From: Nannocystis sp. RBIL2
GTDB lineage: Bacteria > Myxococcota_A > Polyangia > Nannocystales > Nannocystaceae
DNA length: 64,000 bases
Assembly: GCF_026626745.1 (NCBI RefSeq)
Contig: NZ_JAPNJW010000001.1
Coordinates: 908,311-972,310 of the forward strand
Reading direction: 5' to 3'
Of the stretch, positions 20,998-56,122 are shown one piece after another; within the stretch, counting starts at the first letter, position 1, and every line of letters begins with the position of its first letter. Under the pieces are notes generated by a model. That model made no database searches. It saw only the letters and a list, made by a program, of their open reading frames with translations, and was not told the DNA's origin. A program made the translations under genes and the position numbers.

Positions 20998-22611
20998 TTG
21001 CGCGCGACCCCTCACGCACGATACACAGCGGTCACGGCACCCGAGTTCCATCACGACCGCCGCGGCTGCGTCGCCGCCGGTCACCCCGTCACCGCAGCGG
21101 CCGCCATGCACGCGCTCGCGGCCGGGGGCAACGCGTTCGACGCCGTGCTCGCCGCGCTGATGGCCGCGTGTGTCGCCGAGCCGGTGCTCGCCTCGCCCGG
21201 CGGCGGCGGCTTCATCCTCGCGCTCCCGGCCGGCGGCGAGCCGCGGCTCTACGACGCCTTCGTGCACACGCCGCGCGTGCGCCGGCCGCAGGCCGAGGCC
21301 AACGCGCGCGAGGTGATCACCGACTGGGGCACCGCGCAGCAGGCCTTCCACATCGGGGTCGGCTGCGCCGCCACGCCGGGCCTCGTCGCCGGCATGTTCG
21401 CGGTCCACCGCGAGCTCGCGCGCCTGCCGATGCCCGTCATCGCCGCCCCCGCGGTGCAGGCCGCCCGCGACGGCATCGCAGTGTCGCCCTTCATGGCCTA
21501 CCTCATGACGCTGGTGGCGCCGATCTACCTCGAGCTGCCGGCCGCCCGCGCGATCTTCGGCGATCCGGCGGCCGTGGAGGGCGGCGCGCCGACGCCGGTC
21601 AAGGCCGGCGGGCGCCTCGTCAACCCTGTCCTCGGGGACATGCTCGAGCAGCTCGCGCGCGAGGGCGAGGACCTGTTCTACCGCGGCGACGTCGCCGCCG
21701 CGATCGTCCGCCAGAGCCGCGAGGCCGGCGGCCACATCACCGCCGACGACCTCGCCGCCTACCGCGTGCAGGCCCGCGCCCCGCTGCGCCTGCGCTACCG
21801 CGACGCCACCCTCCTCACCAACCCGCCGCCGGCCGCCGGCGGCCTGATGATCGCCTTCGCTCTCGCCTTGCTCTCGGGACATGGCCTGAAGGACATGGGC
21901 TTTCAGACAGCCGAGCACACGGCCCTGCTCGCCCGCGTCCAGGCCGAGACGGTGCGCGCGCGCGCCACCGCCGGCCCGCCGCGCGAGGGCGTCGAGGCGA
22001 CCTGGCTCGGCGGCGACCTGCTGGCCGCCCACGCCGCGGCGCTGGCCGGCCCGCTGCGCAGCCGCGGCACCACCCACGTCAGCGTCATCGACGCCGCCGG
22101 CAACGCCGCCACCGCCACCGTCAGCAACGGCGAGGGCTGCGGCGAGATCGTCCCCGGCACCGGCATGATGCTCAACAACATGCTCGGCGAGGACGACGTC
22201 AACCCGCCGGGCCCGCACGCCTGGCCGCTCGATCAGCGCCTGGCGTCGATGATGTCGCCGACCGCGATCATCGGCGACGACGGCAGCCTGCTGGTGTGCG
22301 GCAGCGGCGGCTCGAAGCGGATCCGCACCGCCGTCCTGCAGGTCGTCTCCAACGTCCTCGACTTCGGCTTGCCCCTGCCCGCCGCGATCGCGGCCCCGCG
22401 GATCCACGTCGAGGACGACCACGTCAGCTTCGAGGCCGGCCTCAGCCCCGCCGCCGCCGAGACCCTCGCCGGCCTGTTCGCCCGCACCACCGCCTGGCCC
22501 GGCCTCAACATGTTCTTCGGCGGCGTCCACACCGTCCAGCGCACCAAGGACGGCCGCCTGTCGGGCTTCGGCGACCCCCGCCGCGACGGCGTCTGCCTCG
22601 GCGGCGAGTAA
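20998..22611 (+). CDS. ggt: gamma-glutamyltransferase family protein
   Basis: It has a GGT fold with the autoprocessing/catalytic Thr context RGTTHVSVIDAAGNA and a glycine-rich oxyanion segment (GSGGSKRI). The exact start is uncertain (ATG 20998 or a downstream GTG). Confidence 0.8.
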   Translation: MRATPHARYTAVTAPEFHHDRRGCVAAGHPVTAAAAMHALAAGGNAFDAVLAALMAACVAEPVLASPGGGGFILALPAGGEPRLYDAFVHTPRVRRPQAEANAREVITDWGTAQQAFHIGVGCAATPGLVAGMFAVHRELARLPMPVIAAPAVQAARDGIAVSPFMAYLMTLVAPIYLELPAARAIFGDPAAVEGGAPTPVKAGGRLVNPVLGDMLEQLAREGEDLFYRGDVAAAIVRQSREAGGHITADDLAAYRVQARAPLRLRYRDATLLTNPPPAAGGLMIAFALALLSGHGLKDMGFQTAEHTALLARVQAETVRARATAGPPREGVEATWLGGDLLAAHAAALAGPLRSRGTTHVSVIDAAGNAATATVSNGEGCGEIVPGTGMMLNNMLGEDDVNPPGPHAWPLDQRLASMMSPTAIIGDDGSLLVCGSGGSKRIRTAVLQVVSNVLDFGLPLPAAIAAPRIHVEDDHVSFEAGLSPAAAETLAGLFARTTAWPGLNMFFGGVHTVQRTKDGRLSGFGDPRRDGVCLGGE

Positions 22612-25600: not shown

Positions 25601-25743
25601 ACCACCTGCGTGTCCGACACGTCCGGATAGGCCTCGATCTTCAGCGTCGCCAGCGCGTACGCCCCCGCCGCGCTCCACACCCCCGTGGCCAGCAGCACCG
25701 CGAGGCGGAAGCGCAGGGCGAGGAGCGGCAGCCGCGTCAGCAT
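22648..25743 (-). CDS. czcA: heavy-metal efflux RND permease (CzcA/CusA family)
   Basis: 1031 aa with 12 TM helices and RND architecture. It is the last gene of an OMF-MFP-RND operon in czcCBA order. Confidence 0.9.
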   Translation of the reverse strand: MLTRLPLLALRFRLAVLLATGVWSAAGAYALATLKIEAYPDVSDTQVVVITTLPGYAAEEVEQLVTVPIERSLGSVPHVIGRRSRTIFGLSVVELTFDDAIDDLVARQVVLEKLRDADLPPGVESSLGPMSTAIGEMFRYHLVSATLTTMQLRTLQDWVVAPRLLQAPGVADVVTFGGEVRQYQVELDPLALDKFHLSIDDIAAAIEDNNENAGGGVIDNGQQSIAVRSVGQLQTAEDIASTLVGVDDGVPIFVRDAATVRIGPAPPTGIFGLDAAQGGVEGVVLMRRWENPSEVLRGIHARVDALNAGEELAGARIEGFYDRSELVGRTLRTVSRTLAEGVTIVVFVLVLLLGSVRAALLTALMIPLSLLFAFVCMKLAGVPANLLSLGALDFGIIVDGTLVMVEAIVHRLQQRPDPRAPAEPSEFGAAAREVARPIGFSLAIIIAAYLPLFMLQRVERRLFTPMAFTVSTALLGALLLSLTLTPVLASYVFRRGVKSRPSRVMSAIAAGYAGLVRRLVRRARPVVAVAAVMTVAALVLVGRRVGTEFLPQLDEGSIWIRCNLPRGLSLFKSAEIATTIRGLVLQSPEVRRVASQTGRNDSGTDPYGPNRNEFLVDLQPYETWPKGQVKADLVEALARRLRAAIPGATFSFTQPILDNATEAATGSSADLAIILRGPDLDELRRLAVQSRALVAGIAGAADTAIEQEAAQEQLRLRLRRADMARYGVDVSDVQQLVSLAIGGRPIATVYEGSRRFAAALRFIPEARASGEAIGRLMITPRRGGRVPLAEVADIELVEGATIIARRENHRQVTVRTNIRGRDQGSFVAEAQRRLQATLQLPPGYRVEWGGQFENLARARRRLVVILPLTLGIILSLLCFTFRSLRWALLVLACVPFSLLGGVLALWLRGIHLSVSAAVGMVSLFGVAVMSGVLLVESIRAVAAGGDAGEDTVQGAARAVRPLLLMILVALLGMVPAARATGIGSDVQRPLATVVVGGLVSTLFLTLLVLPCAASLVRPRQRDGAKDMSERT

Positions 25744-25749
25744 CGATCC

Positions 25750-26919
25750 TCACTCCGACGGCAGCAGCAACAGTCCGCCGTCGACCACCACCCGCTCGCC
25801 GACCTTCGCCCCCTCCGCCAGCCCGAGCCACTCGCCGCTGCGCGCCCCGATCCTCACCGCCCGCACCTCGAAGCGGCCCGGGCCGCGCTCGACCAGCACG
25901 ACGTCGCCGCCGTCGCGGTGCAGCACCGCCGACTGCGGCACCGCCGGCATCGACGTGGTCGCCCGCGAGTGACGCACGCGACCGAACATCTCCGGGCGCA
26001 GGCGGCCGTCGGGGTTCGGCAGCGCCGCCTGGACCTTGATCGTCCGCGTCTTCGGCTCGACGGTGTCGGCGATCCGCACCACCCGGGCCGCGAACGTCTC
26101 GCCCGGGTAGGCCGCCAGCTCGGTCTGCATCGACTCGCCGAGCGCGACGAAGCGGATCAGGTTCTCCGGCACGTCGGCCGTCACCAGCACCGCGCTGAGG
26201 TCGGCGATCGTCATCAGCGGCTGGGCCGTGTCGGAGTGGAACTCGCCCGGCGCGACGTGCAGCTCGAGCACCTTGCCGGCGATCGGCGCGCGCACCGAGA
26301 TCGTGTCGCGCCGATCGCCCGCGACCAGCCCGAGCAGCCCGAGGTGCCGGCGCGCCTGCTTGCGATCGGCCTCGCTCCGCACCACCGCCGCCCGGGCTTC
26401 GGCGTGGGCCGCGTCGACGTTGTCGACCTCCTTGCGCGCCACCGCGTCGTGGGCGAAGAGCCCGTGGACGCGCTCGCGGTCGGCGGTGGCCTTGACCAGC
26501 CCGGCCCGCGCCGCCAGCACGTCGGCCTCGGACTGCTCGTAGTGGGCGATCGCCGCGTCGGCCTCGGGGCTGTCGAGCACCAGCAACACGTCGCCCGCCG
26601 CCACGCGATCGCCCACGCGGACATCGACCTCGCGCACGCGCCCGGTCACCGGCAGGAGCACGTGCGACAACCTGCCCGGATCGATCTCGAGCTGCGCCGG
26701 AGACACCACCTCGTCGGTCGACAGCTCGCGCGCAGTGACCCCGCCGATCTTCAGGCTCGACAGCATCGGCGAGTCGGCCGGCAGCTCGATCTGCGGCGAA
26801 TTGCTCGGCACCGCCGCCGGCGCCGACGCGGCCTCGCGCTGCGGCGTCCGCGGTCGACACGGCCCGAGCGAGCCGATCAACCACATCGCGATCCACCACC
26901 CGCGCGCGCTCACTGCCAT
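25750..26919 (-). CDS. czcB: efflux RND periplasmic adaptor (membrane fusion protein)
   Basis: It has biotin-lipoyl-like and beta-barrel MFP segments (DVRVGDRVAAGDVLLVLDSPEA...). It overlaps the upstream OMF gene by 10 nt. Confidence 0.8.
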   Translation of the reverse strand: MAVSARGWWIAMWLIGSLGPCRPRTPQREAASAPAAVPSNSPQIELPADSPMLSSLKIGGVTARELSTDEVVSPAQLEIDPGRLSHVLLPVTGRVREVDVRVGDRVAAGDVLLVLDSPEADAAIAHYEQSEADVLAARAGLVKATADRERVHGLFAHDAVARKEVDNVDAAHAEARAAVVRSEADRKQARRHLGLLGLVAGDRRDTISVRAPIAGKVLELHVAPGEFHSDTAQPLMTIADLSAVLVTADVPENLIRFVALGESMQTELAAYPGETFAARVVRIADTVEPKTRTIKVQAALPNPDGRLRPEMFGRVRHSRATTSMPAVPQSAVLHRDGGDVVLVERGPGRFEVRAVRIGARSGEWLGLAEGAKVGERVVVDGGLLLLPSE

Positions 26920-28211
26920 CCTCCGCTCGCCGTCACCGCCTCGATCTCGTACAGCGCCCGGGCGAACGAAGCCCGCGCCTCGTTGTAGGTCCGGCGCGTG
27001 TCGTTGTGGGCCCGCTGGGCGTCGATCAGCTCGATCAGGCTGGCCTCGCCGCGGCGGTACGCGTACTCCGCCGTCGCCAGCACCTGCTCCGCCCGCGCCA
27101 GCATCCCGCCCTCGAAGCTCGCCAGCAGCTCGCGCGCCACCTCATAGGCCACGTGGGCGTTCGCCGCCTCGATGCGGATCGCCTGTTCGACCGCCAGCGC
27201 CCGCTGATCGGCCTGCGCCGCCTGCTGACGGGAGCGCTCGATCTGCCCCTGATTGCGGTCGAACAGCCGCAGCGGCACCACCACGAAGAACCCGAGCGAG
27301 TTGCCGGTGCCGGCCAGACCTTGCTGGCGCCGCGCCTCCACGCCGACGCTCAGGTCGATCTTGCCCTCGGCGATCTGGCGGCGCACGTCGAGCTGGGTGA
27401 AGCGCTGCTCGTCGTGCGCCGCCCGCAGATCGGGCCGCTCACGCAGCGCTTGGGCCCGGATCTCCGCCAGCGCCCGCGGCGTCACGTCGGCCCGCATCTC
27501 GCCCGTGACGGAGATCGCAGCCGCCGCCTCGGTGCGGCCGAGCAGCAGCGCCAGGTTGTTGCTCGCGACCCGCTGCGCCCCCTCCGCCTGCCGCAGCTCG
27601 TTGCTCGCCTGCAGCTCGGCGATCTGCGCGCGCGTCAGGTCGACCTTGGCGAGGTCGCCGTTGGCGACGCGGACCTCGTTGAGCGCGACCACGCGGGCGT
27701 ACAGGTCGCGGTGCACCTCGGCGAGCTCGACCGCCGCGGCCGCGTACTGCACGTCGACGCAGGCGCGCTGCACGTCGCGGACCAGCCGGCGGACCGCGTC
27801 GCGGAGGCGCTGCTCGGCGACCGCCACGCCGGTCTCGGCGACCTCGATCCGGCGCTTGCGCTTGCGGCCCACGCGGAACAGCCAGTCGGTGCGGACGAAG
27901 AACTCCTCGGGGCCGGCGTGGTTGACGTTGTCGTAGTGCGTGCCGAGCAGGTCGAGGTGGTCGGCGCCGACGCTGAGCGTCGGGTTCAGGCGCAGCCGCG
28001 CCGTGACGATCTCGGCCCGCGCCAGCGGCACCTCGTATCTCTCGGCCAGGAGCTCCAGGTTGTGCCCCAGCGCCTCGCCGACCGCCTCCTCCACGCTCAT
28101 CACCTCCACCGGCGTCAACGGCGCCGCGCTCGCCTGGCCCGAGAGCCAGATGAGCACGAGCCCCGCCCCGCGGACGCGGAGCCGGCGCGCACGGGCATGC
28201 GAGCGAGACAC
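26910..28211 (-). CDS. czcC: TolC-family outer membrane efflux protein
   Basis: It has the signal peptide MSRSHARARRLRVRGAGLVLIWLSGQASA and repeated coiled-coil/beta-barrel halves typical of OMF proteins. It is the first gene of the operon. Confidence 0.8.
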   Translation of the reverse strand: MSRSHARARRLRVRGAGLVLIWLSGQASAAPLTPVEVMSVEEAVGEALGHNLELLAERYEVPLARAEIVTARLRLNPTLSVGADHLDLLGTHYDNVNHAGPEEFFVRTDWLFRVGRKRKRRIEVAETGVAVAEQRLRDAVRRLVRDVQRACVDVQYAAAAVELAEVHRDLYARVVALNEVRVANGDLAKVDLTRAQIAELQASNELRQAEGAQRVASNNLALLLGRTEAAAAISVTGEMRADVTPRALAEIRAQALRERPDLRAAHDEQRFTQLDVRRQIAEGKIDLSVGVEARRQQGLAGTGNSLGFFVVVPLRLFDRNQGQIERSRQQAAQADQRALAVEQAIRIEAANAHVAYEVARELLASFEGGMLARAEQVLATAEYAYRRGEASLIELIDAQRAHNDTRRTYNEARASFARALYEIEAVTASGGWQ

Positions 28212-28289
28212 ACGACGGTGTTATGCCGACGACCCGGGCCGGCAAGCGGGCGCCCGGTCGCGCCCGCAGCCGGCGGCCGGACGGCGAGC

Positions 28290-28470
28290 TGGCCCCCGGG
28301 ACATGCTCGTTCGGACAGCTCGAGACTCCCGCCCGCAGACTGCTCCCCGCGAGAACATGCCCCGAGGGCTCGCCCGCTTTGGACCCCGCCTCACCCGGCC
28401 TGGTCTTCCGGACATGACCCGAAGGACATGATCGTAAGCGCATGTCCGTGAGCACATGCCCTTTCAAACA
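28290..28470. repeat. cluster of CATG-centred palindromes (GGACATG/CATGTCC units) in the czcCBA promoter region
   Basis: At least 7 copies of (G)GACATG(H)(Y)C or its inverse lie within 180 bp upstream of the czcC start, including gcatgtccgtgagcacatgc (a 6-bp stem). Confidence 0.5.
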
Positions 28471-28510
28471 TGTCTCGCGCCCGTCCGGCGCCCCGACTCG
28501 GCCGGCCCGC

Positions 28511-29395: not shown

Positions 29396-30193
29396 GTCGT
29401 GTGGGGGATGTCCGAAAGGACAGGGCAGATCGGACCGGTGCGCGGCGCAGTCGCAGTCAGCAGGGCGCCTCGGGGGGCGAGGGCCGGGCTGCGGGCAGGG
29501 CCGAGGGGGGCGGCCCGTCCGGGCCCGCACAGGCGCGGTCGACCTCGACGAGGGCGAGCGACCAGTTGCGGGCGAAGCGGCGCGACATCCGGGGAAAAAC
29601 CGGCGCGAGTGTACAACACCTGCGCCCGCCGAGCGTCGCGCTGATCCGCGCCGCCGGCGCGCCGCCGGCCCCTCGCAGCCGCTGCACGGGCCGCTTCCGG
29701 GGCCCTCGAGGCCGACCGCCACCTCGCTGCAGCGCGCCGCCCTCGTCCGGCTGACTGCGACACCTTCGCCTTCGTCGTCGCGGCCCGGTCGCTGTCGCAA
29801 GCTCTCGCGTCGACCTTCGCCCTGTCATCTCCGTCGCGTCCGCCAGCCTCGTGCGACGAGCCTGAGGCCCGAAGCCCCGAGGTCGGCGCACGTGCACGAA
29901 GATGGGCCCGGCGCGGCGGTCGCTGCCCGTGAACCGCAGCCGGCGGGCAGCGCCGGGGACCCACATCACGGCCGACATCCGGGGAGGATCCCGGACACCT
30001 GCACTGACGGCGATCGATCGCCGCGAGCACACCCCAGCAGGTCGACGTTTCGCCGCCAACATGGCAAAAGACACCGTTTTAGCGCAGATCCGCCCGCCCG
30101 GCGCACCGGCGCCCGCACCCGGCCTCGCTCCAGAACGGACTTCGTTCTAGCGTGCAGAACGGCCACGGCTGGTGTAGGTAAGCGAGACCAGGC

Positions 30194-31891
<1,698 letters not shown>

Positions 31892-33749: not shown

Positions 33750-35786
33750 GTGCCACGCGCTCGCGCCACGCTCTGCACCTGCCTCGCGGCGTGCCTGTGG
33801 GCCTCGCCCGGCCAGGCCGCGCCCGCGGTGGTCCCCCCGAGCCCGCGGACCCGCGTCGACGCCGTCTATCCGCTCGCCGAGGCGCGCAGCGACGCCGTCG
33901 CGGTCGAGCTGGCCGTCACCGTCGAGGCCGACGGCCGGGTCGGCGCCGTCGAGGTCCTGAAGAGCGGCGGCGCGGCCTTCGACGACGCCGCAGTCGCCGC
34001 GGTCAAGCAGTGGCGGTTCGACCCGGCGCGCCGCGACGACGTCGCGGTGGCCGTCAAGATCCGCGTGCCCTTCAACTTCGCCCCGCCGGCCCAGCCCGCC
34101 GAGGCGCCCGCGGGTGAACCTGCCCCTTCGGCCCCACCCGGACAACCTGGCCCTTCGGCCAGCCCGCCAGGTCCGTCGCAACCTGCCCCTCCGGACAGCC
34201 AGCCGGGCCCGTCTCAACCCGCCCCTTCAGCCGGCCAGCCAGGCCCGTCTCAACCTGCCCCTTCGGCCAGCCCCACCCGACCTGCCCCCTCGGACAGCCA
34301 GCCGGGCCCGTCGCAACCTGCCCCTTCGGCCAGCCAGCCCGAGCCGGTGCTCGACGTCGCCGCGCGCAGCCGCCGGCCGCCGCCGCGGGCCGCCAGCGAC
34401 TTCGTCGTCGAGCGCGACGTCCTCGCCGCCCCGCCGCGGCAGAGCGCCGCCGACATGCTGAGCAGCGCCCCCGGCGTCTACGTCGCGCGGGCCGAGGGCG
34501 AGGCCGTCGCGCACGAGATCACCCTGCGCGGCTTCAACGCGGCGCACGGCCAGGACATCGAGATCACCGCCGGCGCCTTGCCGCTGAACCAGGTCTCGCA
34601 CCTGCACGGCCAGGGCTACGCCGACCTCAACTGGATCGTCCCCGAGACGGTGCGATCGATCCGCGTCACCGAGGGCGTCTACGACCCGCGGCAGGGCGAC
34701 TTCGCGGTCGCCGGCAGCATCGACTTCGACCTCGCCGTCCCGCGCCGCGGCATCCAGCTGCGCAGCACCGGCGGCTCCTTCGCCACCTTCCGCCAGCTCG
34801 TCCTGTGGGCCCCCAAGGGTCAGGACGACGAGACCTTCGCCGCCGCCGCGGTCCGCCGCACCCGCGGCTTCGGCATGAACCGCGGCGGCCTCTCGGGCAT
34901 GGCCATGGGCCAGTTCGCCTTCTCGGCCGCGGGCGGCTGGCGCGGCAAGGTCCACGTCGCCGCCTACGCCGCGCGGGCCGGCCTCGCCGGCGTCCTGCGC
35001 CGGGACGACGTCGCCGCCGGCGCCGTCGGCTTCTACGACAGCTACGGCGACCCCTCGGCCAACAGTCAGTCCGCCTCGGCCGCGCGCGGCCACCTCTCGC
35101 TCGAGCTCCAGCGCCGCGGCGAGGGCGGGGCGGTCACCCGCATGGCCGTGTGGACCGCCCTCGTCGACTTCCACAGCCGCGAGAACTTCACCGGCTACAC
35201 CCAGCGCGGCGTCGTCATGCCGCAGTGGGTCGGCCGCGGCGACCTCATCGAGCAGCAGAACCGCGACTTCGGCGGCGGCATGCGCCTGTCCCATCGGACA
35301 GCCGGCTGGCGCCCCGCCCCGTGGTTCCACGCCGCCCTCGAGGTCGGCGCGGCCGCGCGGATCCACAACATCCAGCAGGCGCAGAACCTCTTGCAAGCGC
35401 CGCAGAACGAGACCTGGGACCGGCGCGTCGACGCCACCGTGCTCGCCAGCGACGTCGGCCTCTACGGCGACCTCGACCTCCGCTTCGGCAAGCGCGTGCG
35501 CTTGCGCGGCGGCGGTCGGGCCGACGTCCTCCACTACGACATCGACGACCGCCTCGGCAACTTCATCGCCCCCTACCAGATCGAGAGCCACCTCGTCGGC
35601 CACCGCCGCACCGCCACCGGCGTGGCCGCCGGCCCGCGCGTCAGCCTCGAGGTCGCGCCTGTCCCTTGGGTCAGCCTGTTCGCCGCCTACGGCCAGGGCT
35701 ACCGCTCGCCGCAGGCGCGCCAGCTCGACGAGGGCGAGCGGGCTCCGTTCGCCAAGGTCCACAGCACCGAGGCGGCGTGCGCATGA
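33750..35786 (+). CDS. TonB-dependent receptor-like protein with N-terminal TonB-C-like domain and Pro-rich repeat linker (N-terminal 678-aa portion)
   Basis: It has a GTG start and signal peptide. The N-terminus carries a TonB C-terminal-like domain (YPLAEARSDAVAVELAVTVEADGRVGAVEVLKSGGAAFDDAAVAAVKQWRFDPARRDDVAV). Six 36-bp PAPSASQPGPSQ repeats follow, then plug-like motifs (MLSSAPGVYVARAEG...ITLRGFNA) and beta-barrel strands. The frame ends at TGA 35784-35786. Confidence 0.65.
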   Translation: MPRARATLCTCLAACLWASPGQAAPAVVPPSPRTRVDAVYPLAEARSDAVAVELAVTVEADGRVGAVEVLKSGGAAFDDAAVAAVKQWRFDPARRDDVAVAVKIRVPFNFAPPAQPAEAPAGEPAPSAPPGQPGPSASPPGPSQPAPPDSQPGPSQPAPSAGQPGPSQPAPSASPTRPAPSDSQPGPSQPAPSASQPEPVLDVAARSRRPPPRAASDFVVERDVLAAPPRQSAADMLSSAPGVYVARAEGEAVAHEITLRGFNAAHGQDIEITAGALPLNQVSHLHGQGYADLNWIVPETVRSIRVTEGVYDPRQGDFAVAGSIDFDLAVPRRGIQLRSTGGSFATFRQLVLWAPKGQDDETFAAAAVRRTRGFGMNRGGLSGMAMGQFAFSAAGGWRGKVHVAAYAARAGLAGVLRRDDVAAGAVGFYDSYGDPSANSQSASAARGHLSLELQRRGEGGAVTRMAVWTALVDFHSRENFTGYTQRGVVMPQWVGRGDLIEQQNRDFGGGMRLSHRTAGWRPAPWFHAALEVGAAARIHNIQQAQNLLQAPQNETWDRRVDATVLASDVGLYGDLDLRFGKRVRLRGGGRADVLHYDIDDRLGNFIAPYQIESHLVGHRRTATGVAAGPRVSLEVAPVPWVSLFAAYGQGYRSPQARQLDEGERAPFAKVHSTEAACA

Positions 35787-36412
35787 GCCCGCTCGGCGGT
35801 CGCCTCCAGCTCAGCGCCGCCGGCTTCGCCACCTTCCTCGCCCAGGACCTCGCCTTCGACCCCGAGGAGGGCCGGCTCGAGAAAGTCGGCCCGACGCGGC
35901 GGGCCGGCGCCGCGGTCCAGCTGATCGCGCGCCCGCTGCCGTGGTTGGTCGCCGCCGGCAGCGTCACCTACGTCCACGCCGTCCTGCGCGCCCCGCCGCC
36001 GGCCACCGCCGAGAACCCCTCCCCGCCCTACGTCCCCGGCCAGCTGCTGCCCTACGTCCCGCCCGTGGTCGTGCGCGCCGACATCGGCATCGACAAGGAC
36101 CTCGCCTTACTCAAGGGCCGCCCGCTCGGCCTGCGCGTCGGCCTCGGCTACTCCTACCTGTCCCCGCGGCCATTGCCCTACGGACAGTTCGCCGACCCCG
36201 TCCACCTCCTCGACGCCAGCGCCGCGGTGCGTTGGTCGGTCGTCGAGGTCGGCGTCGAGGCCTTCAACCTGCTGGCCCGTCGCTGGGCCGCCACCGAGTA
36301 CAACTTCGTGTCCGACTGGGGCACCCGCCCGATCCCCTCCCTCCTGCCCGCCCGCCACTTCGCCGCCGGCCCTCCGCTCAGCGTCATGGGCACCCTCACC
36401 CTGCACTTCTAG
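35783..36412 (+). CDS. C-terminal beta-barrel portion of the TonB-dependent receptor (separate frame, ATGA overlap)
   Basis: ATG at 35783 overlaps the upstream TGA. It encodes 209 aa of alternating-amphipathic barrel strands ending in the canonical C-terminal aromatic (...MGTLTLHF). This is either a split gene or a frameshifted single receptor. Confidence 0.5.
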   Translation: MSPLGGRLQLSAAGFATFLAQDLAFDPEEGRLEKVGPTRRAGAAVQLIARPLPWLVAAGSVTYVHAVLRAPPPATAENPSPPYVPGQLLPYVPPVVVRADIGIDKDLALLKGRPLGLRVGLGYSYLSPRPLPYGQFADPVHLLDASAAVRWSVVEVGVEAFNLLARRWAATEYNFVSDWGTRPIPSLLPARHFAAGPPLSVMGTLTLHF

Positions 36413-36469
36413 CCGCCTGTCCTCTCGGACTTCCCCGCGACTCGCGCTCGCAGCCGAAGTTTTCGCCCC

Positions 36470-36760
36470 GCATCGCCTTCCGACTCCGCGCGCCTCTCCG
36501 CCGCCTGCCCTCGGAGCCCGTTCCCGACCACCGCTTCCCCACGCGCATCGCCGCCCGACTCCGCGCCCTCTCCGCCGCCTGCCCTCGGAGCCCGTCCCCG
36601 AACGTCGCTTCCCCTCGCGCATCGCCGCCCGCTCCACGCCTCACATGAGTCGCCGCCCTCTCCATCGGGCCCGCCGCACCGACCCTCATCGCTCCTCACC
36701 CCGCCTCGCCTCATCAGCTGTCCCTTCGCACCTGTCCTCTCGCACCTGTCCCTTGTTACC
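36470..36760. repeat. tandem roughly 70-bp direct repeats (2.5 copies) plus three CTGTCC half-site units between receptor and lipoprotein genes
   Basis: The unit gcatcgcc...ccgcctgccctcggagcccgt(t/c)cccga...cgcttcccc repeats at 36470, 36541 and 36611. It is followed by cagctgtcccttcgcacctgtcctctcgcacctgtcccttg. Confidence 0.6.
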
Positions 36761-36773
36761 GGCCCTTTCGCCC

Positions 36774-37502
36774 ATGTCCCTCCGACCAGCCATGCTCCTC
36801 CTGCTCTGCGCCGCCTGCGGCGCCACCGGCGAGCCGGCCTTTCAGGCCCCGCTGCGGGCGCGAGGGGCCGCGGCCGAGCTGACCGCGGGCGCCTGGACAG
36901 TGACCCTCACGCGAGCAGAAGTCGGCCTCGGCCCGCTCTACCTGTGCGCCACCGCGGCCGCCTCCTCCGAGCTGTGCGCCACCGCGGCCGCCGAGTTCGC
37001 AGCGGTCGCCCCCGTCGACCTGCTCGACCTCGGCCCGCAGCCGCTCGGCGAGCTCGACGTCCTGCCCGGCCAGGTCCGCTCGGCCATGCTCGACTACGGC
37101 GTCACCTGGCTCAAGACGCAGGCCAAGCCGGGCGCTCAGGACGGCGCGCCGGGCCGGCGCGCCGCCCGGTTCGCCGGCACGGCTGTCTCTGCGGACATGT
37201 CCTTCGAGTTCACCGCCGACCTCGACGTCGCCCCCGTGCTCCGCGGCAGCCGCACCATCGAGGGCCTGCGGATCGGCCCCTTCGACCTCGACGTCGGCGG
37301 CGCGCTCGACGTCACGATCGACGGCGCCGCCTGGTGGGCCGGCGTCGAATTCGACGCCCTCGCCGCGCTCGGCCCCGGCCCGCACGACCTCGCCGCCCTG
37401 GCCGCCGAAGATCCGGCCTCGCCCGCCGCCGACGCCCTGGCCGCCGTCCGCTTCGCCATGATCGCCGTCCCGCCGCGGTTCGCCTGGACCGCCGAGGAAT
37501 GA
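36774..37502 (+). CDS. hypothetical lipoprotein in the TonB-system cluster
   Basis: MSLRPAMLLLLCAACGATG gives a lipobox. The protein is 242 aa, and the exbB start follows 5 nt after its stop. Confidence 0.55.
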   Translation: MSLRPAMLLLLCAACGATGEPAFQAPLRARGAAAELTAGAWTVTLTRAEVGLGPLYLCATAAASSELCATAAAEFAAVAPVDLLDLGPQPLGELDVLPGQVRSAMLDYGVTWLKTQAKPGAQDGAPGRRAARFAGTAVSADMSFEFTADLDVAPVLRGSRTIEGLRIGPFDLDVGGALDVTIDGAAWWAGVEFDALAALGPGPHDLAALAAEDPASPAADALAAVRFAMIAVPPRFAWTAEE

Positions 37503-37506
37503 CCCC

Positions 37507-38196
37507 ATGACCCCGATCGACGCCCTCCAGCAGCTCTTCCTCCGCGCCGGCGCCGGCTGGGTGCTGTGGCTGCTCGGCCTGCTCTCGCTCGTCAGCGTCG
37601 CCCTCACCGTCGAGCGCTGGTTGGTCCTGCGCGCCCGCGGCGGCGACCTGCGCGTGCTCGCCGGCCGCGTCGCGGCCCTCCTGCAGGCCGGCGACCGCGA
37701 CGGCGCGCTGCGCCTGCTCGCCGCCTCGCCGAGCGTCGCCGCGGCGATCGCCGCCGCCGGCCTGCGCCTCGCCGACCGCGGGCCCAAGGCCGCCGAGTAC
37801 GCCATGCAGAGCGCCCTCGCCCTCGAGCGCGGCCAGCTCGAGCGCGGCCTTATCTTCCTCGGCACCCTCGGCAACAACGCCCCGTTCGTCGGCCTGCTCG
37901 GCACCGTCATCGGCGTCATCGCCGCCTTCGAGGAGCTCGGCCACGCCGCCCCCGGCCACGGCGGGGGCACCGGCGCCGCCTCGCAGGTCGCCTCCAACGC
38001 CGTCATGTCGAGCATCGCCGAGGCCCTCGTCGCCACCGCCGTCGGCCTCCTCGTGGCCCTCCCCGCAGTCGCCGCCTACAACGCCTTCCAGCGCAAGATC
38101 ACCTCGCTGTGCCAGGGCAGCGAGGCGCTCACCAACCTCGTCCTCGCGTACATGTCCGATACGACAGGCCCCGAAGGCCAGCCGGAGGTGCGCTGA
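37507..38196 (+). CDS. exbB: MotA/TolQ/ExbB proton-channel family protein
   Basis: Three TM helices with the conserved GLLGTVIGVIAAF...AEALVATAVGLLVALPAVAAYN TolQ/ExbB core. There is a GAGGAA RBS. Confidence 0.85.
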   Translation: MTPIDALQQLFLRAGAGWVLWLLGLLSLVSVALTVERWLVLRARGGDLRVLAGRVAALLQAGDRDGALRLLAASPSVAAAIAAAGLRLADRGPKAAEYAMQSALALERGQLERGLIFLGTLGNNAPFVGLLGTVIGVIAAFEELGHAAPGHGGGTGAASQVASNAVMSSIAEALVATAVGLLVALPAVAAYNAFQRKITSLCQGSEALTNLVLAYMSDTTGPEGQPEVR

Positions 38197-38636
38197 TGGC
38201 CGGCCACAGCAGCGGCGACCCGGGCGGCATGATCGTCGGCATCAACGTCACGCCGATGGTCGACATCGTCCTGGTGCTGCTCATCATCTTCATCGTCACC
38301 GCCAAGATCATCGTCACCCCCGCGGTCGAGATGGACCTGCCGGAGGCCAGCACCGCCGGCGAGGTCCAGGTCGTCCTGTCGGTGATCGTCCCCGAGCGCG
38401 GCGCCACCCTCGTCGACGGCGAGCCGATCGCCGGCGACGACGAGCTGATGACCCGCGCCGCCGCAGTGCGCGCCCGCAGCCCGCAGGTCCGCGCCGTCAT
38501 CCACGCCGACGGCGAGGTCCCCCACCGCCGCGTGATCGCCACCATCGACGCCCTCCAGCGCGGCGGCGTCTACCGCGTCGCCTTCGCCACCCTGTCCCCC
38601 GCGCCAGGCCCCGCCGGCCAGGAGGCGACGCCGTGA
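38196..38636 (+). CDS. exbD: biopolymer transport protein ExbD/TolR
   Basis: ATG overlaps the exbB stop (TGATG). The protein has a single N-terminal TM helix (INVTPMVDIVLVLLIIFIV) with the conserved Asp and a periplasmic domain, 146 aa. Confidence 0.85.
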   Translation: MAGHSSGDPGGMIVGINVTPMVDIVLVLLIIFIVTAKIIVTPAVEMDLPEASTAGEVQVVLSVIVPERGATLVDGEPIAGDDELMTRAAAVRARSPQVRAVIHADGEVPHRRVIATIDALQRGGVYRVAFATLSPAPGPAGQEATP

Positions 38637-38647
38637 CCCGCTCGTCG

Positions 38648-38880
38648 CATCACATGTCCTTCGGGACAGCCTCCGGCGCGCCCGACACGGCTCATCACCT
38701 GTCTCTCGGGCCATCCTCCCCCGCGCCCGCACGAGCTCTGCCGCGAGCCCTCGCCCGAGCGAGCGCCGCCACGCCTCATCGCCTGTCCTTCGGGCCATCC
38801 TCCGCCGCGCGAGCTCAGGCGCCCGCGCGAGCCCTCGCGCGAGCGAGTGCCGCCGCTCCCCACCTGTCCTTGAAAAAATC
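38648..38880. repeat. tandem roughly 84-bp repeats, each headed by a CATCAC(C/A)TGTCCTTCGGG hairpin-family unit, in the exbD-tonB spacer
   Basis: The units are catcacatgtccttcgggacagcctcc, catcacctgtctctcgggccatcctcc, ctcatcgcctgtccttcgggccatcctcc and cacctgtccttgaaaaaa. Units 2 and 3 are full 84-bp tandem copies. Confidence 0.6.
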
Positions 38881-38898
38881 CTCAGTGGAGGTCCGCGC

Positions 38899-39735
38899 GT
38901 GACTCGGCCGGGCATCGCCGCCCAGGTGTTCGCCGCCGCTGCGCCGCCGGCCTCGCGGCGGCACCACGCGATCATCGTCGCCGTCGTCCTGCACCTCGGC
39001 GTCGCCGTGATGATCTTGCGGGCCCAGCCCACTCTGGAGACCTGGAGCGCCACCATGGCCGCGCGCGTCCACGACGAGCTGACCCGCCTGCAGCTCGCCG
39101 ACGTCGAGCGCACCGAGCCTACGCCTCCGCCGCCCGAGCCGACCCCCTCCGAGCCCCCGCCGCCCACCAGCGAGCCGGCCCCCGCCGTCGCCGCGACCCC
39201 ACCCGCCCCCGCGCGACCGGCCCGGCCCGCCCCCGCGCGCGCCGGCAAGGTCGTCGCCGCCCCGCCGGGCGCCCTCGACCTCACCGGCGACGTCGTCGTC
39301 GTCGGCAACGCCAGCGCCTACGTCGGCGGCGCCACCAGCTCGACCGGCACCGGCACCAAACCTGTCCCGAACGCCAGCTCGGGGCCGTCGCCCGCGCAGT
39401 CGCCCACGCCGCCCGCGAACCCCCCGCCTGCCTCCCCCGGCACCATCGATCGCTCGCGCTCGGTCGCCCTCGCCAGCGACGAGTGGAACTGCCCCTGGCC
39501 GCTCGAGGCCGACGGCCTCGCGCTTGACGAGCAGGTCGCCACGATCCGCGTCGCCGTCGACGCCCGCGGCGTCGTCGAGTCCGCCGAGCTCGTCACCGAC
39601 CCCGGCGACGGCTTCGGCGCCGCCGCCCTCGCCTGCGCCCGCCGGACCCGCTTCACCCCCGCGCTCGACCGCGACGGCCGCCCGGTCCGCGCCCGCTCGC
39701 CTGCCATTCGCGTCCACTTCACCCGCGACCGCTGA
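38899..39735 (+). CDS. tonB: energy transducer TonB
   Basis: GTG start with a GGAGGT RBS. It has an N-terminal TM anchor (AIIVAVVLHLGVAVMIL), a Pro-rich spacer (EPTPPPPEPTPSEPPPPTSEPAP) and a C-terminal TonB-C domain (IRVAVDARGVVESAELVTDPGDGFGAAALACARRTRFTPA). Confidence 0.8.
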   Translation: MTRPGIAAQVFAAAAPPASRRHHAIIVAVVLHLGVAVMILRAQPTLETWSATMAARVHDELTRLQLADVERTEPTPPPPEPTPSEPPPPTSEPAPAVAATPPAPARPARPAPARAGKVVAAPPGALDLTGDVVVVGNASAYVGGATSSTGTGTKPVPNASSGPSPAQSPTPPANPPPASPGTIDRSRSVALASDEWNCPWPLEADGLALDEQVATIRVAVDARGVVESAELVTDPGDGFGAAALACARRTRFTPALDRDGRPVRARSPAIRVHFTRDR

Positions 39736-40102: not shown

Positions 40103-40253
40103 CGCGCGTCCACGCGCCGCGCTGCGGCCCCGCGCTCGCCTCCTCCGTTCACCTGTCCTTTCAGACAGGCCTCACGCGCCGCCGCTGCGGCCCCCCGGCC
40201 CCACGGACCGCGGTTGACAACGCGATCGCGCGGGCCGCAGACTGCGGATCGCC

Positions 40254-41759: not shown

Positions 41760-41860
41760 CTTGAAGGGCAGGTCCTCCGGGGCATGCTCCGGAGGACAGG
41801 CTCTTCAGGACATGCTCCCAAGGCCAGGCCCCGCGCCCGCTCCCGACCGCAGAGCGCCCC

Positions 41861-41912
41861 AAAAAGCGAAGGCCGCGGCCGCCGCTCCACCGAGCGTCGG
41901 CCCGCGGCCTTC
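41861..41912 (-). terminator. intrinsic terminator for the vWA lipoprotein gene
   Basis: An 11-bp perfect stem gaaggccgcgg/ccgcggccttc with a 22-nt loop sits 14 bp after the minus-strand stop. On the minus strand it is followed by CGCUUUUUGGGG. Genes are convergent here. Confidence 0.6.
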
Positions 41913-41925
41913 GTCACTCCCGTCC

Positions 41926-46038: not shown

Positions 46039-46736
46039 GTTCGGAGGCGCGGGCGCGCCTGGCCGCATTTCGCAGCGCCGAGTCGCCCGACCGCGCGATC
46101 GCCGACCGAGTCCTCGCCGCGCTCGAGCAGCGCGTCGAGGAGGGCGGCGGCGACGATCTCGACGACGAAGCACCTTCTCGCTCGCGCCTCGCCCCGCGGG
46201 TCCTCGCCGGCTTCGCCTTGGCGGCCGGCGTCCTGCTGGCCCTGACCTGGGCAGTCATGAAGGGCGGCGAGGCGCCGCAGACCCACGTCGCCGCCCCGTA
46301 TCAAGCCCGCGAGGGCGACGCGACTCAGACCGCCGAGCCCGTCCAGCGCCCCGATCCCGCCCGCGCCTCCGCGCCCGATCCGGCGCCCGAGGTCGCACCC
46401 GAGGCGCAGGCCACCGACAAGCCTGTCCCTGCGGACACCTCCAAGGCGCGCCGCCCTGCGCGTGAGGACACCGTCGCCGCCGAGGTCGACCTGCTGCGGC
46501 GGGCCAAGCTGGCCGCGCCCGCCGAGCGCCTGCAGTTGATCGAGGAGCACGCCCGGCGGTTCCCCGGTGGCATTTTGGCCGCCGAGCGCAGCCTGCTCGA
46601 AATCGAGGCCCGCTGCGCCCTCGGCCAGCGCGACGCCGCCCGCGAGCTGGTCGCCAGCTTCCCGCGACGTTTTCCGGGCTCGCCTCTGGTCGACCGGGCG
46701 GCCACCCTCTGTAATGGATCGGCCGCGCAGCCCTGA
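46026..46736 (+). CDS. putative anti-sigma factor (single-pass membrane)
   Basis: It overlaps the sigma gene by 13 nt. It has an N-terminal cytoplasmic helix, one TM segment (VLAGFALAAGVLLALTWAV) and a periplasmic Ala/Pro-rich region, which is the typical ECF partner layout. Confidence 0.55.
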   Translation: MEPLSSEARARLAAFRSAESPDRAIADRVLAALEQRVEEGGGDDLDDEAPSRSRLAPRVLAGFALAAGVLLALTWAVMKGGEAPQTHVAAPYQAREGDATQTAEPVQRPDPARASAPDPAPEVAPEAQATDKPVPADTSKARRPAREDTVAAEVDLLRRAKLAAPAERLQLIEEHARRFPGGILAAERSLLEIEARCALGQRDAARELVASFPRRFPGSPLVDRAATLCNGSAAQP

Positions 46737-46748
46737 CCCCCGCGGCGG

Positions 46749-48335
46749 GTGAGACGACCCGTGCCCACTTCCCGAACGCACCGCAGCCCGATCGCCTCCG
46801 CGGCGAGGGCCTGCCTCGCCGTGGTTCTCACCTGTCCTTTCGTACACCTCGGCTGCCTCCTCGATCCCAGCCCGCTGGGCGAGCTCCCGGGCGACACCGA
46901 CGGCCCTGACACCGTCGAGCTCGATACCCTCGTCGTCACCTCGCAGCACGTCGACGACACCACCGTCGGTCCGCTGCCGACCACCACCGCCGAGCCGGGC
47001 ACCACCGGCGACCCGCCCGACGGCACCACCGGTGAGCCCGTCACCACCGGCGACGATCCGCCGCCGGAGACCGGCTGCATCGACGGCGGCGCCTGCGAGC
47101 AGCTCGACGTCCTGTTCGTCATCGACAACTCCGGCACCATGGGCGAGGAGCAGAGCCAGCTCGCCGACAGCTTCCCTGCCTTCGTCTCGCTGCTGCGCGG
47201 CCTCAGCGACGCCAACGGTCAGCTCGTCGGCGCCGACGTGCACATCATGGTCACCACCACCGACGTGCCGCACCCGCTGTGCACGCCGTTCGAGAAGCCC
47301 GACTACGACGCCGCCGACGGCCAGCCGATCGACACCCCGTGCACCGACCGGCTGGCGCGGTTTACCGGCCTCGGCGCCGATCCGCCGGTGATGTCCGAGA
47401 TCTGCACCTCGCGCTGCTCCGAGGCCGCCCCCTCGATCCCCACCGATCCGTTCATCCGCTTCAGCCCCACCAGCCACAACATCATCGACCCTGACGGCAT
47501 GGGCGACCCCGCGGCCGACGCCCTCGCCTGCATCGGCCCCCAGGGCATCGACGGCTGCGGCATGGAGTCGCCGCTCGAGGCCATGCTGCGCGCGCTCGAC
47601 CTCGAGGCGCGGTGGAACATCGGCGAGCGGCCCTTCTTGCGCCCCGGCGCCCCGCTGGCGGTCGTCCTCGTCACCGACGAGACCGACTGCTCCACCCTCA
47701 ACTTCGCCTACTTCGACCCCAAGCTGCACGACGACCCCGAGTTCAGCAAGTACTGGCCGTCCCACCCGAGCAGCGGCCAGCGGACCGAGCCCACCAGCGC
47801 CGTGTGCTGGAACGCCGGCATGACCTGCGCCGACGACGACGACGACGGCGAGTACGAGTGGTGCATGTCCGAGGACAAGCACGTCCTCCAGCCCGTCGCC
47901 CGCTACACCGAGGCCCTCGCCGGCCTGCGCCAGCTCCACGGCAAAGAAGTCGTCATGCTCGTCCTCGGCGGCGTCCCTCAGGTCACCGAGCACAACCAAG
48001 CCCCTCCGTTCGAGCCCCTCGTCGGCGGCGTCGACGCCCTCGTCTACCGCGACTGGCAGCCCGACGACATCCTCCCCGGCGACAGCGACACCCCCGCCGA
48101 CAAGCAGTTCGAGTTCGGCATCGGCCCCGGCTGCGTCGGCCCCGCCGGCCAGGCCGTCCCGCCCGGGCGGATCCAGGAAGTCTGCCAGTCGCTCGACATC
48201 CCCGACGACCCCGACACCGCCGTCAACGAACGCGCCATGCGCTGCTGCATCGAGTCCGTCTGCGACAGCGACTACACCCCCGCCCTCGGCTGCCTCGCCG
48301 GCATGCTGCAGCCGACCCTCCACGCCATGCCCTGA
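46749..48335 (+). CDS. hypothetical secreted vWA-like protein, last gene of the ECF operon
   Basis: It has a signal peptide, a T/P/G-rich linker and a DxSxT context (LFVIDNSGTMGEEQSQL) with many Cys pairs. The N-terminal signal-peptide codons contain a hairpin-family unit (ctcacctgtcctttcgtacacctc). Confidence 0.6.
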   Translation: MRRPVPTSRTHRSPIASAARACLAVVLTCPFVHLGCLLDPSPLGELPGDTDGPDTVELDTLVVTSQHVDDTTVGPLPTTTAEPGTTGDPPDGTTGEPVTTGDDPPPETGCIDGGACEQLDVLFVIDNSGTMGEEQSQLADSFPAFVSLLRGLSDANGQLVGADVHIMVTTTDVPHPLCTPFEKPDYDAADGQPIDTPCTDRLARFTGLGADPPVMSEICTSRCSEAAPSIPTDPFIRFSPTSHNIIDPDGMGDPAADALACIGPQGIDGCGMESPLEAMLRALDLEARWNIGERPFLRPGAPLAVVLVTDETDCSTLNFAYFDPKLHDDPEFSKYWPSHPSSGQRTEPTSAVCWNAGMTCADDDDDGEYEWCMSEDKHVLQPVARYTEALAGLRQLHGKEVVMLVLGGVPQVTEHNQAPPFEPLVGGVDALVYRDWQPDDILPGDSDTPADKQFEFGIGPGCVGPAGQAVPPGRIQEVCQSLDIPDDPDTAVNERAMRCCIESVCDSDYTPALGCLAGMLQPTLHAMP

Positions 48336-48414
48336 AGGACATGCTCCACAGGCCATGTCCTCGGCGACATGGCCTTCAAGCATGCCCTTCAGACCATGCG
48401 CACGGAAGCGACCC

Positions 48415-48640
48415 CCGACTCACCGCCCGGCGACCGCCAGCCCGCCTCGCGCCGTGATGTCCACGCGCCGCCGCCCCCCGACCGCCAGCCGGCGCCGCGC
48501 CGTGATGCCCACGCGCCGACACCCCCCGATTGCCAGCCCGCGCCGCGCCGTGATGCTCACGCGCCTCCGCCCCACGACCGCCAGCCCTCACCGCGCCACG
48601 ACGCCGCGCCGCGCCACGACCCGCAGTCCCTCGCCGCGCG
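48415..48640. repeat. about 3.5 tandem copies of a 60-bp direct repeat
   Basis: The unit gaccgccagcc(c/g)gc(c/g)ycgcgccgtgatg(y)ycacgcgcc...cccc(c) repeats head to tail between the vWA-like gene and element copy 2. Confidence 0.6.
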
Positions 48641-48650
48641 GAGATGCCAC

Positions 48651-54936: not shown

Positions 54937-55170
54937 ACATCTAAAACTGTCCGCAAGGACAGCCCGCGCGGCGAGGTCGGCTCACCCGGCCTCGCCGCAG
55001 TCGCGACGTCCGGTCCACTCTCGAGACCGCCGCCGCCGCGCATCACCTGTCCCGCAGGACAGCCTTCGATCGACCGGCGCGCGGCGGCGAGCGCTCCTGA
55101 CCTGCCCTCAAGGACAGCCGCCGACCCTCCCTTGCGAGCGCGCCACCCCCCTCCGCACCACCTGACGTGC
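54937..55170. repeat. hairpin-family units plus a 9-bp GC stem-loop downstream of the DUF1552 gene
   Basis: actgtccgcaaggacagcc (54947), the perfect stem gcggcgagg/cctcgccgc (54967-54997), catcacctgtcccgcaggacagcc (55041) and gacctgccctcaaggacagcc (55099). Confidence 0.55.
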
Positions 55171-55959: not shown

Positions 55960-56122
55960 GCCTGTCTGAAGAGACAGCCCGCCATGAAGCGCGGAGCGCC
56001 TGTCCGAAGCGACAGCCAAGCGCGGACCACCTGTCCGAAGAGACAGCCCATCACAGCCGCGAGCACCTGTCCGAAACGACAGCCCCTTCACGACCGAAGA
56101 GCGCCTGTCCGAAGCGACAGCC
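55960..56122. repeat. tandem array of five CTGTC-(c)GAAG(n)-GACAG hairpin units (period 31-38 bp)
   Basis: gcctgtctgaagagacagcc, cgcctgtccgaagcgacagcc, cacctgtccgaagagacagccc, cacctgtccgaaacgacagccc and cgcctgtccgaagcgacagcc, separated by related 12-19-nt spacers. Confidence 0.7.

Follow-up and report, generated by a model that had tools for sequence, protein, structure and literature searches.

The window analysed here is a 64,000-nucleotide stretch of the genome of Nannocystis sp. RBIL2 (contig NZ_JAPNJW010000001.1, positions 908,311 to 972,310), with a G+C content of 72% and with top protein matches in Nannocystis, notably N. pusilla and relatives. Our subject is a short palindrome, TGTCC-N4-GGACA, that recurs between and within genes of this lineage, and an array of altered copies of it that encodes a Pro-rich linker in a TonB-dependent receptor. 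The receptor gene (33750..36412, plus strand) specifies by Pfam a TonB_C domain (residues 51-111), a Plug domain (residues 218-322) and then the TonB-dependent receptor barrel, and is followed downstream by genes for a small protein, ExbB, ExbD and TonB; among its orthologues the protein has 850-916 aa. A 1-nt deletion near 35771, where one G is absent relative to L199, a 95%-identical contig, breaks the gene of the window into two open reading frames (ORFs; 33750-35786 and 35777-36412). The missing G may be a true recent loss that makes this a pseudogene, or may be an error of sequencing.

The linker between TonB_C and Plug contains seven tandem units, all in frame (34119..34339, plus strand), recognised by Tandem Repeats Finder (TRF), by pattern search and by their rare codons. 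Pattern search places the unit starts at 34119, 34146, 34182, 34218, 34254, 34281 and 34317, with a spacing of 36 or 27 nt, and TRF reports 34143-34339 with a period of 36, 5.7 copies and 76% matches. The units have the form xAA CCT GCC CCT TCG GCC AGC, encode (E/Q)P(A/G)P(S/P)(A/D)(S/G), and carry GCC/GCC where the palindrome family has GTC/GAC, altering a T-A pair of the stem; they match the canonical arms at just 9-12 of 14 positions. A single unit (34141..34167, plus strand; CTGGCC-CTTC-GGCCAG) still folds, at -6.3 kcal/mol and z = -2.7, its stem having a compensated G-C pair where the family has T-A. The remaining six are indistinguishable from shuffled sequences (z of about -0.8 to +1), and the repeat region overall folds worse than its shuffles (z = +1.76). 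The initial annotation had described six 36-bp repeats at this position and equated them with an intergenic hairpin unit; the tandem array and the shared family both stand, with seven units at two spacings rather than six at one, and with the hairpin no longer intact, given the GCC/GCC change and the six units of seven that do not fold. Copies of a palindrome of the Nannocystis lineage, in frame and partly decayed, make up the Pro-rich repeats of the receptor.

The core of this palindrome, TGTCC-N4-GGACA, extends to A-CCTGTCC-N4-GGACAG-C/G with a flank consensus of [A/G][C/G][C/A] on each side (i.e. [AG][CG][CA]TGTCC), and the CATGTCC variant occurs where the GGACA of one unit directly abuts the TGTCC of the next. 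Within the window the core is observed 12 times against 0.09 expected (~130-fold) and CCTGTCC 38 times against 11.5. Of all 5-mer stems that enclose a 4-nt loop, TGTCC...GGACA alone is an outlier, and in two other Nannocystis loci it is found 9 times against 0.08 expected. The larger counts that follow come from 518 kb of Nannocystis DNA, comprising the window, two syntenic loci and 54 8-kb tiles that were picked for holding one exact copy (the 57 ascertainment cores were left out where relevant), with genes called by our own codon-bias heuristic. This set holds 153 perfect cores and 173 cores with one mismatch. The spacing of the arms is N4 in 153 cases, is never N3, N5 or N6, and is N2, N7 or N14 once each, and the loops between the arms are highly variable in sequence. 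Extrapolated to a genome of 12-13 Mb, the perfect cores would number about 2,000-2,500, with about as many more that have one mismatch. Two further features of the same 518 kb concern the junctions between units: the 10-bp palindrome GGACATGTCC is present 24 times (~0.4 expected), and half-sites recur at a 14-nt period in 35 cases (e.g. window 22649-22672, 37184-37207, 36718-36791 and 41763-41830), from which it follows that units concatenate head to tail as [TGTCC-N4-GGACA]n.

The palindrome is largely confined to one lineage. In a scan of one genome per species across 185,579 species for the 17-mer CCTGTCCCTTCGGACAG, at least 54 of 116 stretches among the matches listed are from Nannocystis or Nannocystaceae (N. 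exedens, pusilla, punicea, bainbridge, radixulma and several metagenome-assembled genomes), the remaining matches listed being single hits in unrelated taxa. Additional copies of the palindrome are present at ~0.19 per kb in the Nannocystis tiles versus 0.005 per kb in those tiles of other taxa where a copy had arisen by chance. Among 80 metagenomic loci with relatives of the receptor (468 kb), six palindrome hairpins were found, all in the three closest loci (L119, 83% identity; L120, 75%; L191, 61%); the other 77, ~450 kb of DNA from other Myxococcota, contain no core palindrome. A scan of IMG/VR phages for the 17-mer returned one match and was uninformative.

Placement relative to genes was determined for the 96 perfect cores that were not used for ascertainment. 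Fifty are intergenic, in 17% of the bases, and 46 lie inside called genes, so that intergenic copies are ~5 times denser than genic ones, and the coding density (0.107 per kb) compares with ~0.0014 per kb expected. Between genes the density is 2.83 per kb in convergent, 0.89 in co-directional and 0.48 in divergent spacers, with many copies 1-20 nt from a stop codon. Coding copies show no preference for gene ends and are spread evenly along genes. They occur in three reading frames, xxT GTC CNN NNG GAC A, read as (P)-V-(P/L)-x-D-S/T (29 cases), xTG TCC NNN NGG ACA, read as (L/M)-S-x-(G/R)-T (11 cases), and TGT CCN NNN GGA CAx, read as C-P-x-G-(Q/H) (6 cases), a ranking that appears to track the cost in codons and residues, GTC and GAC being common codons and ACA, TGT and GGA rare ones. 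The exact 17-mer behaves similarly, its contexts among the Nannocystaceae matches listed being 27 intergenic, 8 in-frame PVPSDS and 7 antisense LSEGTG.

Codon usage within the coding units departs strongly from that of the host genes. The units use CCT (5% of Pro codons), GAA (8%), CAA (6%), and GCA and TCA, likewise in the 1-8% range; in the window ~20 of 66 CCT codons fall in such units and 5 of 10 PVP tripeptides are written CCT GTC CCx. When synonymous codons were resampled over 431 kb of Nannocystis coding sequence with the proteins held fixed, 3.6, 1.6 and 1.8 near-matches were obtained in the three codon phases, versus 55, 17 and 52 observed (~7 versus 124 in total). Coding units and intergenic hairpins are one family defined at the level of DNA. 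Among 139 Pro-rich segments in 144,000 residues, 21 contain at least one unit and 85% contain none, and the density of units is 2.66 per kb in these segments versus 0.39 in other coding DNA (~7-fold), with 80% of coding units outside them. Pro-rich linkers are therefore a favoured, not a defining, site. Tandem in-frame perfect palindromes at a 27-nt period were also seen in other Nannocystis proteins, at 1598-1850 of L021 (KPVLSDS, APVPADSK, KPVPSDS) and at 4762-4890 of L105 (AVPGDS, AVPEDR, AVLEDR), so the receptor linker is no unique case.

Comparison of the receptor with its orthologues shows conserved TonB_C and Plug domains joined by a junction of variable length. In all Nannocystis-lineage orthologues examined (the window and six more) this junction is built of palindrome units, their number differing from species to species and their sequence often cleaner than in the window, in agreement with the proposal that alignment of orthologues would reveal lineage-specific units at a conserved junction. 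L002 has at least 8 units (e.g. gCA CCT GTC CCT TCA GAC AGC), L201 has GCA CCT GTC CCC GCG GAC AGC and three others, L202 has GCA CCT GTC CCA ACG GAC AGC twice and L200 has CCA CCT GTC CCT TCG ACC AGC four times, the linkers of L199 and L001 being similar to that of the window. The codon that precedes a unit in these linkers nearly always ends in A (GCA, TCA, CAA, CGA, ACA, GTA), as in the intergenic flank, and this too calls for rare codons. The motif is absent from the Pro-rich receptor linkers of the distant L121 and L124, in an extraction by regular expression that recovered 3 linkers only.

Some of the differences between relatives are gains or losses of whole segments. In alignments with other species the linker units stand opposite gaps, and between the window and L199 there are two 9-nt indels in the linker, a 30-nt unit indel in the ExbD-TonB spacer, and a 301-nt intergenic segment (36429-36729) that follows the receptor stop, is absent from L199 and has CTGTCC repeats at its bounds. 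Within this segment lies a 74-bp tandem repeat in 2.3-2.6 copies, every copy with a degenerate unit (GCCTGCCCTCGGAGCCCGTCCCC). L001, L002, L200 and L202, in which ExbD and TonB overlap, lack any counterpart of the 262-nt array in the ExbD-TonB spacer. As a separate observation, an 89-codon ORF (38633-38902) covers the entire spacer array in the window and overlaps both neighbours by GTGA, and TonB begins with in-frame palindrome units (APVPADS) in L002, L200 and L202; the boundary between coding and non-coding DNA near units therefore shifts among species. At larger scale, a three-gene segment of ~5.4 kb is present in the window (22648-28510) and missing from L001 (4430-4510), with arrays of CATGTCC/GGACATG half-sites at both ends and a single array in L001. 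It may mark a recombination hotspot, or may be a mere consequence of units lying at every gene end.

Elsewhere units differ between species by substitution alone. In a gamma-glutamyltranspeptidase gene the window and L001 have AAC CCT GTC CTC GGG GAC ATG where four other species have AAC CCC GAG CTC GGC GCC CTG, without a gap. Within the conserved receptor barrel, an R-L-S-H-R-T site (CGC CTG TCC CAT CGG ACA G) is kept in 5 of 6 Nannocystis-lineage species, reads CGT CTG TCG CAC CGC TCG in L200, apparently by loss in favour of common codons, and is occupied in distant orthologues by other residues in common codons; at a second barrel site (APVPWVS) other species have CCG CTG CCG TGG CTG CGC, again without an indel. 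At the ExbB C-terminus the arms are kept in 6 of 6 species and the residues vary (MSDTT, LSSET, LSSGT). Units would thus appear, from these alignments, to arise both as segments present in one species and absent in another and in place by substitution. Between the window and L001, identity at intergenic sites is 88% in the arms, 79% in the two extension bases, 62% in the loops and 44% in the flanks, and at coding sites it is 93%, 91%, 75% and 84%, respectively. Third-codon positions are 92% identical inside arms versus 81% elsewhere in the same genes (p = 0.044, n = 60).

Further units are distributed over the window (plus strand unless stated). Two occupy the C-terminal linker of a Ser/Thr kinase (31529..31586), GAA CCT GTC CCG ACG GAC ACC at 31529 and GAA CCT GTC CCT TCG GAC ACA at 31568, reading EPVPTDT and EPVPSDT, and are orthologous and kept in L001; another (46422..46440, AAG CCT GTC CCT GCG GAC ACC, KPVPADT) lies in a membrane protein encoded after an extracytoplasmic function (ECF) sigma factor. 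The kinase and post-ECF units are islands of identity in L001, within linkers that have otherwise diverged, and all three were correctly identified in the initial annotation. That annotation had also placed a unit in the signal peptide of a von Willebrand factor A (vWA)-like protein: a site exists at 46831..46848 (CCTGTCC-TTTC-GTACACC), in the lipoprotein-type signal peptide of the protein encoded at 46749-48335, and it is read in another frame (T-C-P-F-V-H) with a degenerate right arm, in a protein to which Pfam assigns no vWA domain. The TonB linker has a left-arm unit (39361..39378, AAA CCT GTC CCG AAC GCC, KPVPNA). The barrel sites described above lie at 35285..35303 (perfect palindrome CCTGTCC-CATC-GGACAGC, R-L-S-H-R-T-A, with rare codons CAT and ACA) and 35658..35676 (palindrome-like, CCT GTC CCT TGG GTC AGC), the transpeptidase site at 21625..21643 (CCTGTCC-TCGG-GGACATG, NPVLGDM) and the ExbB site at 38151..38168 (palindrome-like, CATGTCC-GATA-CGACAGG).

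Among the intergenic copies, one lies 4 nt past the receptor stop (36416..36433) and has orthologous post-stop counterparts in L001 and L199, and a left-arm array (CTGTCCCTTCGCAC and variants; 36718..36791) runs at a 14-nt period up to the start codon of the next gene. The ExbD-TonB spacer array (38637..38898) is composed of 45- and 84-bp repeats with one palindrome each, at 38653, 38698 and 38782, and a half-site at 38863. Single palindromes are found at 40152..40169 (CCTGTCC-TTTC-AGACAGG; its position is kept in L001 and its flanks are unalignable), at 55046..55063 (perfect, CCTGTCC-CGCA-GGACAGC, with a second at 54946-54963) and, on the minus strand, at 29407..29424 (CCTGTCC-TTTC-GGACATC, upstream of a minus-strand gene and kept in L001). 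Five tandem units (CCTGTCC-GAAG-CGACAGCC and variants, period 31-38 nt) separate convergent genes at 55961..56121. Half-site arrays directly follow the stop of the 46749-48335 gene (48337..48400, GGACATG/CATGTCC type) and the stop of a gene in a convergent pair (41763..41830, GG(A/G)CA(G/T)G, 14-nt period), the latter separate from a strong terminator-like hairpin at 41860-41915.

The window contains several other repeats. The spacer after the 46749-48335 gene has 48- and 96-bp tandem repeats (48423-48654, CCGCCAGCCCGCGCCGCGCCGTGATGCCCACGCGCCG...) unrelated to the palindrome family. Farther on lie a hairpin with a 14-bp stem (48676-48708) and a long inverted repeat (48775-48890, GGGGTCCGGGGAAGGGGCGGCCGCGA ... 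TCGCGGCCGCTCCTTCCCCGGACCCC) with ~26-bp arms ~40 nt apart; these two could represent a terminator, a small RNA or an element resembling a miniature inverted-repeat transposable element. Coding tandem repeats at 8757-8878 (ACC/CAC-rich, period 15-21) and 18388-18468 (TCGTGATCG-type, period 9-27) give low-complexity protein segments and are likewise unrelated to the palindrome.

The explanation that we favour, and consider probable, is that the palindrome is a DNA-level signal of Nannocystis, made and kept by a recogniser of both arms, and that the linker repeats are in-frame copies of it. Because the N4 spacing is strict, the loops free, the arms conserved, the origin of sites apparently in place and the sites retained against codon bias, the palindrome would be generated and maintained at the DNA level by a factor that reads the two arms at a fixed distance, most likely a dimeric sequence-specific protein with an architectural, repair, modification or recombinase function. 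Maintenance could proceed by selection or by biased conversion, as proposed for the cyanobacterial palindrome HIP1 (highly iterated palindrome 1), and not by cut-and-paste insertion alone. In its Pro-rich frame the unit would specify a flexible peptide in cheap codons, so that disordered interdomain linkers may let units pile up, and slippage or unequal recombination among these could then produce arrays with a period (27 or 36 nt) divisible by 3. The receptor arrays of the window may now serve only as spacer peptide. The initial annotation had proposed either the exaptation of a mobile hairpin into linkers or a shared slippage mechanism; the common DNA family survives from the former, substitution in place and the fixed N4 spacing argue against insertion as the whole or perhaps even the main mechanism, and the differences in copy number between close relatives fit slippage. 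The more specific statement, that a bipartite palindrome of the HIP type, not described before, is made in place, is kept by selection or a sequence-specific conversion drive in thousands of copies within genes and between them, is recognised by a dimeric protein, overrides codon bias and residue choice, and seeds and expands linkers, we put forward tentatively, at somewhat less than an even chance.

Several points weigh against this explanation. The order of intergenic densities (convergent, then tandem, then divergent) and the concentration near stops are exactly those of classical repetitive extragenic palindromes (REPs), a distribution that is compatible with an element spread by a transposase or acting in RNA, and some of the segments that bear units are true presence/absence differences. 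The recogniser or driver is a postulated factor. The statistics cover ~0.5 Mb, with 54 loci chosen for one exact copy; genes were called by a heuristic of our own based on codon bias; the third-position test, with 60 positions, is weak; and the direction of change at the in-place sites is deduced from six species with no rooted tree.

The serious rival is a classical mobile hairpin of the REP type, in which a REP-associated tyrosine transposase (RAYT) or a similar enzyme would spread copies, with survival and co-option of those inserted in frame into disordered linkers. It would account for a short palindrome in high copy number with conserved arms and variable loops, for segments that contain units and are present or absent between relatives, and for the gene-level indel of 5.4 kb flanked by half-site arrays; the densities of 2.83/0.89/0.48 per kb and the placement near stops are as in published REPs (PMC3733652), for which intragenic copies and clusters encoding tens of residues are also documented (PMC3733652). 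We nevertheless judge it unlikely, since the flanks carry GTAG in 1 of 172 and CGTC in 6 of 172 cases, about half of the copies are intragenic, sites arise without a change in length through several substitutions in conserved domains, and the spacing is absolutely fixed at N4. A tblastn search with an E. coli RAYT query found no Y1-transposase match in 0.65 Mb (~5% of a genome), which is a weak test.

An improbable alternative is an RNA hairpin at transcript 3' ends or between cistrons that acts as stabiliser, processing signal or terminator, with the coding copies as by-products. Clustering of intergenic copies right past stops and in convergent spacers would suit it, as would the presence of at least 4 T in the next 12 nt at 20% of intergenic copies (9% background), the orientation of the asymmetric CCTGTCC...GGACAGC with transcription in tandem and divergent spacers (16 : 5) and the few copies that form part of canonical terminators flanked by A and T tracts (L076). 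An RNA hairpin should, however, accept loops of 3-6 nt, and only N4 is seen; coding copies are conserved and evenly spread along genes; and no Rfam family matches anywhere in the window at gathering thresholds. Single-mismatch variants that keep a G-U pair are equally frequent in sense and antisense (13 versus 14 and 12 versus 10), and because of this symmetry between strands a model of selection on the RNA sense strand was not adopted. Identity with intrinsic terminators was likewise set aside, the downstream T enrichment being modest and the strong terminator-like hairpins that adjoin palindrome arrays being separate from them, and an early bias in loop orientation (YTTC in sense) fell away at 8 versus 5, leaving only the modest bias in flank asymmetry. 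Far less probable still is a coincidence of protein sequence and composition, with P-V/A-P-S-D/A-S as a favoured linker peptide in a genome of 72% G+C. Pro-rich linkers are indeed common (the 139 segments noted above), and the receptor units of the window match the canonical arms at only 9-12 of 14 positions; this reading is contradicted by the codon resampling with fixed proteins (7 expected versus 124 observed), and stands against the 1-8% codons CCT, CAA, GAA, GCA and TCA that the units use, the mainly intergenic location of the identical 17-mer, the 85% of Pro-rich segments without a unit, the L121 and L124 linkers without the motif and the 77 more distant receptor loci without a core palindrome.

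A DNA-level signal can here be seen to shape proteins, since rare codons, particular tripeptides and entire repeat linkers of Nannocystis are owed to the palindrome and not to protein function. If the more specific statement above is correct, V-P-x-D, L-S-x-G-T and C-P-x-G-Q peptides would be imposed by the signal, and genome architecture would be a direct source of new protein sequence. The palindrome adds to HIP1 a second, phylogenetically independent system for studying why lineages keep thousands of copies of one palindrome, and its two arms and fixed spacing suggest a specific recogniser that might be isolated biochemically. In practical terms, the motif is a near-diagnostic marker for Nannocystis DNA in metagenomes, arrays of units are hotspots of length variation between strains, and gene callers and the repeat and linker annotations of Nannocystis will be misled by the units.

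Among known systems the closest parallel is HIP1 (GCGATCGC), a cyanobacterial palindrome whose over-representation, by tens to hundreds of fold, extends to coding and non-coding DNA alike, and that is conserved within and between ORFs beyond codon usage, with selection or biased repair suspected and function unproven (PMC5861425, PMC4390886). The Nannocystis palindrome resembles it in its in-place origin, its retention against codon bias and its restriction to a lineage: in the coding and non-coding DNA of one lineage it exceeds the 15-fold over-representation that marks such palindromes (~130-fold in the window), and its ORF sites exceed the expectation from protein and codons and are conserved between species. 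It differs in being bipartite, with 5-7-bp arms around a free 4-nt spacer where HIP1 is a contiguous octamer, in belonging to another phylum, in its enrichment just past stops and in forming tandem arrays; HIP1 proper is GCGATCGC with cognate orphan methyltransferases, whereas the Nannocystis sequence is TGTCC-N4-GGACA. REPs (PMC3733652; Di Nocera et al. 2013) number hundreds to thousands of copies and are short, GC-rich palindromes whose stems are conserved and whose loops vary. Most sit close to 3' ends in the spacers of convergent or co-directional ORFs, some lie inside ORFs, and clusters can encode 20-82 residues (PMC3733652). The Nannocystis palindromes are also very numerous, short and dispersed, with intergenic copies mainly in convergent and co-directional spacers near 3' ends. 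They are not essentially extragenic (46 of 96 cores lie in genes), lack the GTAG/CGTC end tag, and differ from REPs in their smaller size (14-18 nt), invariant loop length and origin by substitution without insertion.

Rickettsia palindromic elements (RPEs) reportedly occur in frame within genes, where they add stretches of peptide at permissive surface or linker positions. They are 100-150 bp long and are clear insertions, with orthologues that lack the segment. Of the in-frame units of Nannocystis, those of linkers are aligned against gaps in other species, and those at the transpeptidase (GGT), RLSHRT and APVPWVS sites are ungapped and involve substitutions only. The Nannocystis unit differs from RPEs in size (14-18 nt, of which 18 nt corresponds to 6 codons), in being often made in place and in being tandemly amplified. 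Uptake sequences are said to show a reading-frame bias, and the uptake signal sequence (USS) of Haemophilus and the DNA uptake sequence (DUS) of Neisseria are motifs under molecular drive that accumulate in tolerant frames and regions and as inverted pairs after genes, with single asymmetric motifs being active. The Nannocystis palindrome shares with them its over-representation and the placement of coding copies in tolerant frames and regions, and differs in that its unit is an obligatory inverted pair at a fixed N4 spacing. A literature search on the sequence itself and on REPs and palindromes of Nannocystis and myxobacteria found no description in the library covered. In this comparison the Nannocystis element would behave like a cross between HIP1 and a REP, with in-frame linker copies that recall intragenic REPs and RPEs.

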